Shown here: positions 2,187-7,205 of the stretch, piece by piece | How positions within the stretch are numbered: position 1 is the stretch's first letter | How the letters are laid out: every line of letters starts with the position of its first letter | NCBI RefSeq assembly: GCF_000026545.1 | Contig: NC_011601.1 | DNA from: Escherichia coli O127:H6 str. E2348/69 | GTDB taxonomy: Bacteria; Pseudomonadota; Gammaproteobacteria; Enterobacterales; Enterobacteriaceae | Length of the DNA: 64,000 nucleotides | Reading direction: 5' to 3' (one strand) | Translations under genes and position numbers: made by a program | Notes under the pieces: model-generated | Database searches by the model: none | What the model saw: only the letters and a program-made list of their open reading frames with translations | What the model was told of the DNA's origin: nothing

Positions 2187-2408
2187 GCTCATTCTGCAAA
2201 CGGTTGTTTTATACACTCATTCGGTGTATCTTTTCGCCGCCCCAAACTCTTCCATTCACCATTAGCCGGTTCTGAGCATTCGCTCAGGTTGTTAATTCTC
2301 TTTTTCCTTCGCCCTTGCTTTCGCGGGTGATACTCACATTTTTATTTTAACCCCATAACTCGCACCCTCGCGGGCGTACATTTATTACACACAAAATAAT
2401 GGATTATT

Positions 2409-3116
2409 ATGAATACCCAACGAAAATACGGGAGAACCTGGCATTACCCCTTCTCTCCAGGCACCACCAGCGATGACCGCATTAACACCGATTACTGGCA
2501 GGATTTAAAGGCCATCACGCAATTGGTGCACACAGAAAAACTCGATGGCGAAAATAACTGCCTTAACCGCTACGGCGTGTTTGCCCGCTCCCATGCCACG
2601 CCTACGCAGTCGGCATGGACCTATAAAATTCGCCAACGCTGGCAACTGCTGAAAAACGATCTCGGCGACCTGGAGTTGTTTGGTGAAAATCTCTACGCCG
2701 TTCATTCCATTGAATACCGCGCGCTGGAACAGGACTTTTACCTGTTTGCCGTTCGCTGCCAGGATATGTGGCTGAGCTGGGAAGAGGTGCAGTTTTACGC
2801 CGCTCTGTTTGATTTCCCCTGCGTTCCCGAAATCTCCGGCCCGCAGCCGGGGAATGATGAAAAAAGCTGGCAACGTGATTTTCTGGCGCTGGCCAATGCG
2901 CGCGGCACATTCGATCCCTGGGATACGCAAACCTGGCAACCCTGTACGCTGGAAGGCATTGTCAGCCGAAATCATGATGCGTTTTCTGTCGCTGACTTTT
3001 CGCATAACGTCTTCAAGTATGTGCGCAAAAATCATGTCAAAACCACTGTGCACTGGAAACGCCACTGGCAACGGGCGCGGATGGCCCATGAGTTCGTTTA
3101 TGGAGAACAGTCATGA
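2409..3116 (+). CDS. ATP-dependent RNA ligase family protein (nucleotidyltransferase domain)
   Basis: 235 aa ORF; covalent nucleotidyltransferase motif I K-x-D-G in TEKLDGEN; ligase-like FGENLY and KYVRK motifs; no K-12 counterpart at this locus. Confidence 0.65.
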
Positions 3117-4225
3117 TTTGGCAACTTACCGACGATAAACGCTGGTCGGCGCTACGTCAGCGTTTTAGCTGGGTTGAGGAGATGCATCACACGCCACAAG
3201 ACCCTGAGCATCATGGTGAAGGCGACGTCGGCGTACATACCGAAATGGTGCTTAACGCCCTCATTACTCTGCCAGAATTCCAGCAACTCCCCGCTCAACA
3301 GCAGGAAGTTTTATGGGCGGCGGTGTTATTGCATGATGTTGAAAAGCGCAGCACTACCGTGCAGGAAAACGGACGTATTCAGTCTCCTGGTCATGCTCGT
3401 CGGGGCGAACTGACGGCCCGACAAATTTTATGGCGCGATATCCCAACGCCGTTCGTGCTGCGCGAGCAAATTGTTGCACTGGTGCGTCTGCATGGGTTAC
3501 CGCTATGGTTACTGGAACGCCCGGAACCGGAGCGTTTGTTGCTCACGGCTGCAATGCGCATCGACACGCGTCTGCTCGCTTTGCTTGCTCGTGCCGATCT
3601 GCTTGGTCGCCAAAGCCCGGATCAGCAATCAATGCTGGAACGCATCGATCTGTTCGAGCTGTTTTGCCATGAGCAACAATGCTGGGGAAAAATGCGCCCG
3701 TTCGTTTCTGATTCCGCACGCTGGCATTACCTGACCCATGAGCAAAGTTCTCCTGATTTTGTTCCCTGGGGGGCTGAACCTTTTGAGGTTATTTTGCTGT
3801 GTGGCTTACCGGGTATGGGCAAAGATCGCTATATCAGTGAACAGTGCCAGGGAATTGACGTTATCAGCCTTGATGATATGCGGCGGCGAATCAATGCCAG
3901 CCCGGATGACAAAACCGCTACCGGGCGTATTGTGCAACAGGCAAAAGAAGAGGCGCGCGTTTTTTTACGCCAGAAAAAGCCGTTCATCTGGAATGCAACG
4001 AACATTACCCGCCAGCTGCGTAGCCAGCTCATCAGTCTGTTTACGGCTTACGGCGCACGAGTAAAAATCGTTTATCTGGAAGTGCCATGGGCGCAATGGA
4101 AGCAGCAAAATGCCAGACGCGAGTATGCAGTTCCTGAAGCGGTCGTGATGCGGATGGCCTCAAGGCTGGAAGTTCCTCAACCTGATGAAGCACATAGCGT
4201 GGAGTATCGGGTGATTGAAAGGTAA
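3113..4225 (+). CDS. HD-domain phosphohydrolase fused to P-loop kinase-like domain (putative RNA end-healing enzyme)
   Basis: 370 aa ORF; start overlaps upstream stop (ATGA); N-terminal H..HD motifs ([17 protein letters not shown]); C-terminal Walker A-like [10 protein letters not shown]. Confidence 0.65.
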
Positions 4226-4247
4226 ATAAATATCCTCCGGCATAGCC

Positions 4248-5797
4248 CTGTCTCTTATACACAAATCCCCACCCGGGGATTTGTGATGTCTGTCAGTCTG
4301 CTTTAGGGGGACTCTTTCCATCCGGTAGTTTCCTTCCTCCCCGGCAGCGATTTTTTGAACTTTTTCCTCACCTGTTGATCTTCTCTTATATTTCATTTTC
4401 TTCGGGTCTGTTATGGTACTTTCTGATTGTTATTCATGGGCTAACGAGCAGTTTGGACATGCCCGTCTCGGTGATCCGCGTCGTACACGACGCCTTGTGT
4501 CACTGGCCTCTTCTCTCGCTCAGCATGCAGGTCTTTCTATTGTGAAATCATCCCAGTCCACTGCTCAGGTTGAAGGTGCGTACCGCCTGATACGTAACCC
4601 GTCTGTGTCCCCGCAAGCCATTGCCGAAGCCGGATTTACCGCCACTGTAAGGGCATGTGAGGCTCATCCGCTGCTCCTCGCGCTGGAAGACACCACCACC
4701 ATTAACTTCAGTCACAGTACGGCATCTGATGACCTGGGGAATACCACCACTAACCCGAAGACGCGCGGGCTGCTGGCTCACTCTGTCCTGATGTACGCCC
4801 CCGACAGCGCCCTGCCAGTCGGTCTTATCGAACAGCAGCGCTGGAGTCGTGCCACGGACACCTACGGTGTTAAGCACCAGCGAAAAGAACGTCCCTATGA
4901 AGAAAAAGAAAGTTACCGCTGGCAGCAGGCTTCGGAGCGCATGGCCGAACGGCTGGGGGAGATACAGAAACGGGTAATCACTGTCTGTGACCGGGAAGCG
5001 GATATCTGGCATTACCTGCATTATAAAGTCAGCCACGGGCAGCGCTTCGTGGTGCGTGCAGCACAGAATCGCCGGCTGGAAGAAGCACCCGGCAAGCTCT
5101 TCGAACTGCCGGAAGTCCTGGCAACCGCGGGAAGCCACACGCTGAATGTGATGCAAAAAGGCGGGCGGGCAGCCCGCCAGGCCCGGATGTTCATCAGTTA
5201 CAGCGAAGTCAGCATAAAAAATCCCGACAACAGCGGCCAGGCGCTCCCGCTCACGTATGTCTGTTGCCGGGAGCAGGCAGAGGACGGCGCCTGCTGGCAT
5301 CTGCTGACGTCAGAAAAAGTGGCGAGTGCCGCCGATGCGCGACGTATCGTCAGCCATTACGAGCGACGCTGGCTGATAGAGGAATACCACAAGGCGTGGA
5401 AAAGTGGTGGTACATGTGTGGAATCGCTGCGAATGCAGACCCGGGATAACCTCGAGCGCATGGTGGTTATCAAGGCGTTTATCGCGGTGCGGGTGCTGGG
5501 CCTGCGGCAGGGCGGTATCAGTGAAGAAACACAAAATGACAGCTGTGAGAAAATACTGACGCCGACAGAGTGGAAACTGCTGTGGGTTAAGCTGGAAGGA
5601 AAACCGCTTCCGTCACAGATGCCGACACTGAAATGGGCCTGTCTGAAACTGGCGAAACTGGGGCGATGGCATGACAGCAAACGCACCGGTCGCCCCGGTT
5701 GGGTAGTCATGTGGGATGGCTGGTTCAGACTTCAGGATATGGTTGAGGGTTACCTGGTGATGAAGTCTCTTGATCAGGAGATCTGATCAAGAGACAG
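4248..5797 (+). mobile_element. IS4-family IS50(Tn5)-like insertion sequence, copy 1 (1550 bp)
   Basis: Ends CTGTCTCTTATACACAAATCC and AGATCTGATCAAGAGACAG (the latter matching the Tn5 inside end as recalled); 9-10 bp duplication cggcatagcc; identical to copy 2. Confidence 0.85.
4413..5786 (+). CDS. IS4-family DDE transposase (Tn5 Tnp-like)
   Basis: 457 aa; Tn5 transposase-like motifs GDPRRT, VCDREADI, RWLIEEYHKAWKSGG, DNLERMV, DSKRTG. Confidence 0.88.
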   Translation: MVLSDCYSWANEQFGHARLGDPRRTRRLVSLASSLAQHAGLSIVKSSQSTAQVEGAYRLIRNPSVSPQAIAEAGFTATVRACEAHPLLLALEDTTTINFSHSTASDDLGNTTTNPKTRGLLAHSVLMYAPDSALPVGLIEQQRWSRATDTYGVKHQRKERPYEEKESYRWQQASERMAERLGEIQKRVITVCDREADIWHYLHYKVSHGQRFVVRAAQNRRLEEAPGKLFELPEVLATAGSHTLNVMQKGGRAARQARMFISYSEVSIKNPDNSGQALPLTYVCCREQAEDGACWHLLTSEKVASAADARRIVSHYERRWLIEEYHKAWKSGGTCVESLRMQTRDNLERMVVIKAFIAVRVLGLRQGGISEETQNDSCEKILTPTEWKLLWVKLEGKPLPSQMPTLKWACLKLAKLGRWHDSKRTGRPGWVVMWDGWFRLQDMVEGYLVMKSLDQEI

Positions 5798-5893: not shown

Positions 5894-6352
5894 TTACTTA
5901 CGGCCCGTAAACGGGCTGCCCGGATAGGGAATCGATAACTGCTCTCCCATTTTATCCTCTTCAAGCTGGTGCTTTATGTAATCCTGTATCTTCGCCGTGT
6001 TCTTACCCACCGTATCGACGTAATACCCTCTGCACCAGAACTCCCTGTTCCTGTACTTGAATTTCAAATCACCAAACTGCTCGTAAAGCATCAGACTGCT
6101 TTTCCCTTTCAGATATCCCATAAAGCCGGATACGCTCATTTTGGGCGGGATCTCCACAAGCATATGGATATGATCTGCACAGCATTCAGCTTCCAGAATC
6201 CGTACACTTTTCCACTCACACAGCTTTCTCAAAATACAGCCTATTGCTCTACGCTTCTCTCTGTAGAACACCTGTCTTCGGTATTTTGGCGCAAATACTA
6301 TGTGATATTTACAGTTCCATCGGGTGTGCGCTAAGCTCTTTTCGTTCCCCAT
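5894..6352 (-). CDS. tnpA: IS200-family transposase TnpA (Y1 HuH)
   Basis: MGNEKSLAHTRWNCKYHIVFAPKYRR N-terminus, HIHMLV HuH motif, C-terminal catalytic Tyr region; ORF 5894..6403 with start at internal Met. Confidence 0.85.
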   Translation of the reverse strand: MGNEKSLAHTRWNCKYHIVFAPKYRRQVFYREKRRAIGCILRKLCEWKSVRILEAECCADHIHMLVEIPPKMSVSGFMGYLKGKSSLMLYEQFGDLKFKYRNREFWCRGYYVDTVGKNTAKIQDYIKHQLEEDKMGEQLSIPYPGSPFTGRK

Positions 6353-6544
6353 TGGGACCCCCTTTTGATTTCTTGTTTGACACTTGCAGTTGCCAGACCG
6401 CAAGGTGTTTTAACAAATCAAAAGGGGTTTTAATAACTGGCTCAAAGCTGAAAGCTTTCCGGAACCCCCAGCCTAGCTGGGGGTTTTCTGTGCACAAAAA
6501 ACCGGGCGGTGGTGTCACCTGCCCGGCTTCTTTTGTTCCACTGA

Positions 6545-7128: not shown

Positions 7129-7205
7129 GAAAGACGCGCATTTGTTATCATCATCCCTGAATTCAGAGATGAAATTTTGGCCACTCACGAGTGGCCTTTT
7201 TCTTT
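7129..7205 (+). ncRNA. micA: MicA (SraD) small regulatory RNA
   Basis: Sequence gaaagacgcgcatttgttatcatcatccctgaattcagagatgaaattttggccactcacgagtggccttttt matches MicA by recall; terminator hairpin plus T-run; between luxS and gshA. Confidence 0.85.

Follow-up and report, generated by a model that had tools for sequence, protein, structure and literature searches.

An aspartate in the P-loop of a predicted HD-Pnk polynucleotide kinase from Escherichia coli E2348/69 and its pairing with a Walker-B asparagine

The window analysed here, 64,000 nucleotides of contig NC_011601.1 from Escherichia coli O127:H6 strain E2348/69, contains an open reading frame whose product carries the Walker A motif GLPGMGKD, in which an aspartate follows the P-loop lysine in place of the usual Mg-binding serine or threonine. 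The question raised by this locus is whether such a protein can still be a working polynucleotide kinase. The initial annotation, made from the letters alone, had drawn attention to the motif and suggested either a degenerate or regulatory NTPase or a variant phosphotransfer mechanism. In our view the best explanation, to which we assign a probability of about 0.72, is that the frame encodes an orthologue of the HD-Pnk enzymes in which GKD marks an active kinase and the metal-site carboxylate has shifted from Walker B to Walker A. The sequence, its conservation and covariation across the family, the orthology to a tested enzyme and the shared gene context are observed; that the E. coli protein is active, and how Asp238 and Asn294 are arranged in space, we infer.

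The motif forms residues 231–238 of the 370-residue product, as read in the translation of 3791–3850, with Lys237 encoded by AAA at 3821–3823. The gene and its relevant features are:

3113..4225, + strand: HD-Pnk gene, 370 aa, with a predicted N-terminal HD phosphoesterase and C-terminal P-loop polynucleotide kinase, from a full-length match to the Runella HD-Pnk
3113..3727, + strand: predicted HD phosphoesterase domain, about residues 1–205, with invariant H34, H42, H74-D75 (nt 3332–3337), H94, H127 and D162
3788..4177, + strand: Pnk-type P-loop kinase domain, residues 226–355 (Pfam AAA_33, E 1.1e-31)
3803..3826, + strand: Walker A or P-loop, G231-L-P-G-M-G-K237-D238, from the translation and a HMMER alignment
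3824..3826, + strand: Asp238 (GAT), directly following the P-loop lysine, at the usual Mg2+-binding Ser/Thr site
3872..3883, + strand: D254-D-M-R257, putative equivalents of the general base Asp38 and the acceptor-positioning Arg41 of CthPnk, aligned to VISSDFCR of that enzyme
3992..3994, + strand: Asn294 (AAT) of WNATN, at the structural Walker-B position at the C-terminal end of strand β3, from alignment to the aspartates of CthPnk, PSTK and T4 Pnk
4106..4120, + strand: lid segment Q332-N333-A-R-R336, with NTP phosphate and base contacts predicted by analogy, aligned to the lid helix of CthPnk

Because the motif opens the AAA_33 domain, we regard it as a true Walker A and not as a chance glycine-rich string. 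HMMER aligns it column by column to GSSGSGKS in the kinase domain of Clostridium thermocellum Pnkp (CthPnk), with Asp238 opposite the Mg-binding Ser22. The initial annotation was therefore correct in describing a noncanonical Walker A, in placing it within a kinase-like P-loop domain and in locating the aspartate at the position that canonically coordinates magnesium.

The N-terminal half of the protein is all-helical, with weak matches to the HD regions of HDIG and CCA-enzyme families. Profile searches also match the class II nucleotidyltransferase chains 3WFO–3WFS, PF01966 is precomputed for many HD-Pnk homologues, and the histidines and aspartates listed above for this domain are all invariant columns in our family alignment A1. 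When searched against the PDB, a family profile finds PSTK (7e-11), CthPnk (3e-9) and T4 Pnk (1e-4). No HD-Pnk structure was found in sequence and profile searches of PDB chains; the AF2 model of the E. coli protein (pLDDT 94, pTM 0.93) has as its top Foldseek match in the PDB the CthPnk kinase domain, with a TM score of 0.74 on the target and an r.m.s.d. of 2.6 Å; after it come mammalian PNKP, fungal tRNA-ligase-type kinases, PSTK and T4 Pnk. DSSP analysis of the model assigns residues 291–294 to strand β3. The catalytic set of the Pnk clade is present, with the P-loop Lys237, Asp254 after β2, Arg257 and the lid Arg336 all aligning to CthPnk. Where the protein breaks with the textbook Walker motifs, it does so at just two positions, 238 and 294, which covary within the family: Asp238 occupies the Ser/Thr site of GxxxxGK[S/T], and Asn294 the strand-end site of the canonical Walker-B aspartate.

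These features point to the family of the Runella slithyformis HD-Pnk, which has been purified and biochemically analysed as a 2',3'-phosphoesterase/5'-OH polynucleotide kinase, and whose frame is overlapped by an upstream ligase frame and adjoins genes for Tpt1 and an MTase-HIT protein (PMC6097658). We traced the Runella sequence from PDB entry 7KW8, which is RslTpt1 with R16-H17 as published, through its cluster to the native protein AEI48608.1 and thence to the chromosome CP002859.1 (locus L005). There, the Tpt1 and MTase-HIT genes, a spacer of about 150 nt, the ligase gene and an overlapping gene for a 368-residue HD-Pnk reproduce the published layout. The Runella P-loop reads GLPGTGKD and its β3 strand ends in FVFNATN. 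The E. coli and Runella proteins are 52% identical over 367 aligned residues (E 3e-138), which is their full length, and they share the two-domain architecture, the size (368 versus 370 residues), GKD, the Walker-B asparagine and an overlapping upstream ligase gene. The E. coli locus, in contrast, lacks the adjacent Tpt1 and MTase-HIT genes and is located in the emrB–luxS interval, adjoining IS elements. The likeness to a 5'-OH polynucleotide kinase that had been suspected at the outset is borne out by this identity and by the fold match to CthPnk. Full-length homology, the HD-domain ligands, a C-terminal kinase domain, the catalytic residues and an overlapping ligase are all found in the E. 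coli gene, and by homology it is an ordinary, if new, member of the known HD-Pnk family and not a new kind of system. Since the kinase activity of this family was established on the Runella enzyme, which has the same GKD, we do not regard GKD as the sign of a broken kinase. An Mg-dependent 5'-OH kinase together with a transition-metal-dependent 2',3'-phosphoesterase is reportedly established for the Runella and Deinococcus HD-Pnk enzymes only, the primary studies being those of Munir & Shuman (2017, J Bacteriol 199:e00739-16) on the Runella enzyme and of Schmier & Shuman (2018, J Bacteriol 200:e00151-18) on the Deinococcus radiodurans enzyme.

The conservation of the aspartate was assessed in several sets of sequences. 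Position 238 is aspartate in 113 and asparagine in one of 114 near-full-length homologues, which share 53–98% identity and range from Enterobacterales to Bacteroidota. A search at the DNA level for the HD motif HD[VI]EKRSTT, which takes no account of the kinase site, identified at least 120 species genomes; these include Bacteroidota from many orders, Enterobacterales, Cardiobacterium, Neisseria, Limnohabitans, Thalassovita, Paenochrobactrum, Rothia and Ignavibacteria, and among the matches listed 98 of the 99 readable loci carry GKD and have the state (D,N), where the first letter denotes the residue after the lysine and the second that at the Walker-B position. The peptide patterns used for viral contigs did include GKD, and the loci recovered lacked an exact match to the GKD pattern and entered through the HD pattern. 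An exhaustive HMMER search of 1.84 billion cluster representatives returned 560 relatives at E ≤ 1e-30, and GKD is found in 112 of the best 150 of these (34–55% identity). The sequence sets pooled without this broader search, aligned as the initial annotation had proposed, comprise 337 distinct kinase domains drawn from many phyla, of which 316 have the state (D,N), 14 (S/T,D) and seven (N,N). Across the same domains Lys237 is invariant, Asp254 and Arg257 are each found in 336 and Arg336 in 335, the remainder being alignment gaps; Asn333 is found in 334, and Gln332 is invariant in the family alignments. Across these alignments, the main HD-Pnk branch has GKD as its standard Walker A.

The second departure from the consensus varies together with the first. 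Asn294 of WNATN aligns to the aspartate of VVDATN in CthPnk (Asp78), IVDDTN in PSTK and IISDTN in T4 Pnk. GKD is accompanied by asparagine in the enzymes from E. coli, Runella, Sphaerospermopsis and Rhizobium, and GKS or GKT by aspartate in the HD-Pnk of the D. radiodurans plasmid pMP1, in other Deinococcus, in Vibrio and Methylorubrum and in a viral-contig clade around locus L012. A third combination, GKN with asparagine, occurs on megaplasmids of Ralstonia, Variovorax, Pseudomonas and Bosea. The members of this GKN and WN(S/A/T)T branch (loci L138–L140, L144 and L145, from Ralstonia, Variovorax, P. aeruginosa pF051, Bosea and P. amygdali plasmids) are divergent and have no carboxylate at either coupled site; we note that they have an invariant FDD after β2. 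Mixed states were not found among the 337 distinct kinase domains. In the best 150 of the 560 representatives, aspartate after the lysine is combined with a Walker-B asparagine in 112 cases, with serine in two and with aspartate in none, and serine or threonine after the lysine is combined with a Walker-B aspartate in 18 of 24; among the mixed states in this set, (S,N) occurs four times, (D,S) twice, and (S,S) and (S,E) once each. The combination of two aspartates was observed in none of more than 400 family sequences. All of these counts refer to phylogenetically non-independent sequences, and the real support for the coupling lies in about three or more switches on the neighbour-joining trees.

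These trees were built without columns 238 and 294 and with 100 bootstraps. Rhizobium, which is (D,N), and Methylorubrum, which is (S,D), are sisters in 89 of the 100 replicates, and the (S,D) clade of the L012 type lies inside the (D,N) clade in all 100. Fitch parsimony gives six state changes on 80 taxa. The outgroups CthPnk, PSTK and T4 Pnk, as well as the D. radiodurans HD-Pnk, are all (S,D); rooting a separate tree by kinase-domain outgroups places the (S,D) clade as basal in only 42 of 100 bootstraps, and the full-length trees with divergent members are more informative in this respect. On these trees, the paired state has changed at least three times. All the single-nucleotide intermediates on the way from (S,D) through (S,N) and (N,N) to (D,N) are represented in the HD-Pnk family, and since (N,N) and (S,N) members exist, the retention of one carboxylate is not a strict rule. 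In the full-text literature that we searched, the two primary HD-Pnk papers aside, there is no mention of GKD in connection with a Walker A, a P-loop or a polynucleotide kinase. As far as this search extends, and with the same two papers set aside, the coupling of residues 238 and 294 appears to be undocumented, and we consider it to be a modest new observation.

What this pairing might mean for catalysis can be considered in the light of CthPnk. In that enzyme the catalytic Mg2+ has a single protein ligand, Ser22, and this serine is essential; the transition state is stabilized by Lys21 and Mg2+, Asp38 acts as general base, Arg41 places the acceptor, and the γ phosphate is held by lid arginines (PMC3902929). 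A survey covering over 3000 P-loop active sites describes the Ser/Thr after the lysine as Mg ligand number 4, hydrogen-bonded to the Walker-B aspartate in all P-loop classes save some NMP kinases (PMC9599734). The exceptions catalogued there at the position after the lysine are glycine in NMP kinases and asparagine in torsinA and DnaC, and aspartate is absent from that catalogue (PMC9599734). An exception at Walker B is C. elegans Clp1, in which the residue is Asn229 and the acid has moved to Glu149; fungal Clp1 shows the reverse, an aspartate at Walker B with an asparagine (PMC9599734). Clp1 is thus a precedent for the relocation of Asp and Asn around the metal in a polynucleotide kinase.

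By analogy, Lys237 and Mg2+ of the E. coli enzyme would bridge the β and γ phosphates of the NTP, Asp254 would activate the 5'-OH, Arg257 would position the acceptor strand and the lid Arg336 would contact the NTP. The carboxylate of Asp238 would fill the Mg2+ ligand position of the usual Ser/Thr hydroxyl, and Asn294, replacing the Walker-B aspartate, would donate a hydrogen bond to Asp238, with the polarity of the canonical interaction reversed. The Ser/Thr–Asp pair would in this way be inverted to Asp–Asn, with one carboxylate kept beside the metal. An arrangement of Asp238 as metal ligand and Asn294 as hydrogen-bond donor may also be why two aspartates are avoided, a proposal that we draw from covariation and analogy. 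The suggestion of a variant phosphotransfer mechanism survives in this milder form only, as a rearranged metal site proposed from covariation. We put forward the Asp/Asn pair as a working inversion of the near-universal Ser/Thr–Asp Walker A/B module tentatively, and rate it as somewhat less than an even chance.

One could instead suppose that the kinase is active and that Asp238 is not a direct ligand of Mg2+, a water molecule occupying ligand position 4 and the Asp/Asn pair serving some other end, for example to suppress futile NTP hydrolysis or to set metal preference or donor promiscuity. NMP kinases do function with glycine after the lysine and water as ligand 4, and it has been argued that a kinase which lacks the Ser/Thr is thereby kept from futile hydrolysis (PMC9599734). 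In the present family, the variants (N,N), (S,N) and (D,S) are consistent with a site that tolerates several chemistries. However, aspartate is one atom longer than serine and carries a charge beside the cation, so that one would most simply expect it to bind the metal directly or tightly in the second sphere, and the lack of any Asp+Asp pair suggests that the two side chains lie near each other and near the metal, as they do in the canonical hydrogen-bonded pair. We consider a water ligand unlikely on balance, and return to the reading in which Asp238 itself approaches the metal.

A more radical alternative, raised in the initial annotation, is that the domain binds NTP as a degenerate or solely regulatory module and carries out no phosphotransfer, GKD reflecting lost Mg2+ binding. 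Serine or threonine after the P-loop lysine is almost universally required, the S22A change kills CthPnk (PMC3902929), and asparagine at the same site in torsinA and DnaC gives very low ATPase activity (PMC9599734). Such decay would also agree with two representatives among the best 150 of the 560, P0395 and P0479, in which the P-loop is clearly broken, and with some E. coli alleles that are frameshifted ahead of the P-loop. Against this, the Runella enzyme, with its GKD and Walker-B asparagine, is reported as a 5'-OH polynucleotide kinase (PMC6097658); the aspartate is itself conserved across phyla; and the retention of Lys237, Asp254, Arg257 and Arg336 in essentially all 337 domains indicates purifying selection on a working active site. 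Taken together, these observations make a degenerate module very improbable, and an active kinase is the reading that we retain. The notion that the aspartate is a sequencing error or an inactivating, strain-specific lesion of E2348/69 can be dismissed as already refuted, because region 2300–4400 is 100% identical to three independent E2348/69 or O127:H6 assemblies, the ligase/HD-Pnk pair is found at ≥80% query coverage in 998 of 5426 complete E. coli genomes, every full-length E. coli protein cluster has GKD, aspartate predominates in the family alignment as given above, and GKS or GKT is found only in distant relatives (27–42% identity) which also carry the compensating Walker-B aspartate.

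Two different frameshift alleles of the E. coli gene, P0053 and P0056, truncate the protein shortly before the P-loop and give 252-residue HD-only products. P0053 comprises 216 member sequences; the two alleles may reflect genuine pseudogenization of the kinase half or errors of assembly.

The gene lies downstream of a probable functional partner, and the neighbourhood contains:

2409..3116, + strand: ATP-dependent RNA-ligase-family gene, 235 aa (Pfam PF09414 RNA_ligase, E 7.6e-28)
2538..2549, + strand: ligase motif I, K44-L-D-G, with the putative adenylylation lysine, from the translation; conserved in the Runella ligase (HTEKLDGEN)
4413–5786, + strand: ISEc13 (IS4-like) transposase, between HD-Pnk and luxS
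5894–6403, − strand: IS200C tnpA, between HD-Pnk and luxS
6362–6485, − strand: STnc490 (Rfam, 146 bits, above the gathering score), adjoining the IS200 tnpA
7129–7200, + strand: MicA sRNA (Rfam, 84 bits, above the gathering score), between luxS and gshA

The ligase stop overlaps the HD-Pnk start by 4 nt (3113–3116). The E. coli ligase is 58% identical to that directly upstream of the Runella HD-Pnk, and in 109 of the 112 HD-Pnk genome loci with enough flanking sequence a ligase frame on the same strand immediately precedes the HD-Pnk gene. Searches of solved structures gave no sequence homologue of the ligase, the only matches being spurious ones to hemocyanin. The Runella ligase forms ligase-AMP yet sealed none of the substrates tested (PMC6097658). 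RefSeq names the two E. coli products 'RNA ligase family protein' and 'ATP-binding protein'. The pair forms a 2-kb insert between emrB and luxS, and in E2348/69 it is followed by ISEc13 and then IS200C. In strain FHI_NMBU_03 (L148) the same insert is accompanied by IS200C alone, which indicates that ISEc13 is a later, strain-specific insertion. The PADLOC models of anti-phage defence did not match either the ligase or HD-Pnk, and scans for promoters and terminators around the pair gave nothing above the shuffled expectation except the emrB terminator. Cultured phages rarely carry the HD-Pnk family. On the viral contig IMGVR_UViG_3300025438_000007 (L012), a 355-residue frame is found at 4640–5707, downstream of a GKS-type HD-Pnk. 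In an Adhaeribacter MAG (L001, 5009–9110), genes for RtcB and an RF-1-like protein of the PrfH type lie directly upstream of the ligase/HD-Pnk pair, placing two RNA-repair modules side by side.

As a practical consequence, the RefSeq 'ATP-binding protein' can be named as a predicted HD-Pnk, 2',3'-phosphoesterase/5'-OH polynucleotide kinase, paired with a ligase, and its unusual P-loop gives no ground for calling it inactive. A putative heal-and-seal module would then be present at emrB–luxS in about 18% of complete E. coli genomes. If the coupling is real, HD-Pnk is a case in which evolution has repeatedly exchanged the two catalytic residues that are most conserved among P-loop enzymes, and it would offer a natural test system for the proposed catalytic role of the hydrogen-bonded Ser/Thr–Asp pair of Walker A and Walker B.

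The D. radiodurans HD-Pnk resembles that of E. coli in being a fusion of HD and Pnk domains that is clustered with an RNA-ligase-family gene, in this case on pMP1, but it shares only about 31% identity and has a canonical GSGKS and a Walker-B aspartate (VWDATT). The arrangement of its locus (L136, 3500–6203 and 8338–9366) also differs, in that a TIGR02452-family gene lies between the ligase-family gene and HD-Pnk. A separate gene annotated as 'RNA ligase (ATP)' is found on pMP1 about 2 kb away on the other strand.

Among solved structures, CthPnk (PDB entries 4GP6, 4GP7 and 4MDE) is the best match to the E. coli HD-Pnk in both sequence and fold, and equivalents of its lysine, Asp38, Arg41 and lid arginine are all present. 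It differs in having Ser22 as Mg ligand and an aspartate in VVDATN, and in being fused to a metallophosphoesterase and a ligase domain, with no HD domain. T4 Pnk and archaeal PSTK share the kinase fold and the order of motifs, their DxTN at the end of β3 aligning with NATN, whereas they have GKS with aspartate and have different partner domains and substrates. C. elegans Clp1 (PDB entry 4OI1) is likewise a polynucleotide kinase with a Walker-B asparagine and a relocated acidic function, but it retains threonine after the lysine, its acid is Glu149 on the neighbouring strand and it belongs to a different family of P-loop kinases. The NMP kinases, with glycine, and torsinA and DnaC, with asparagine, resemble the E. 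coli HD-Pnk as natural departures from GK[S/T], and it is the (N,N) branch of the HD-Pnk family, rather than the E. coli enzyme, that comes closer to the torsinA and DnaC case.
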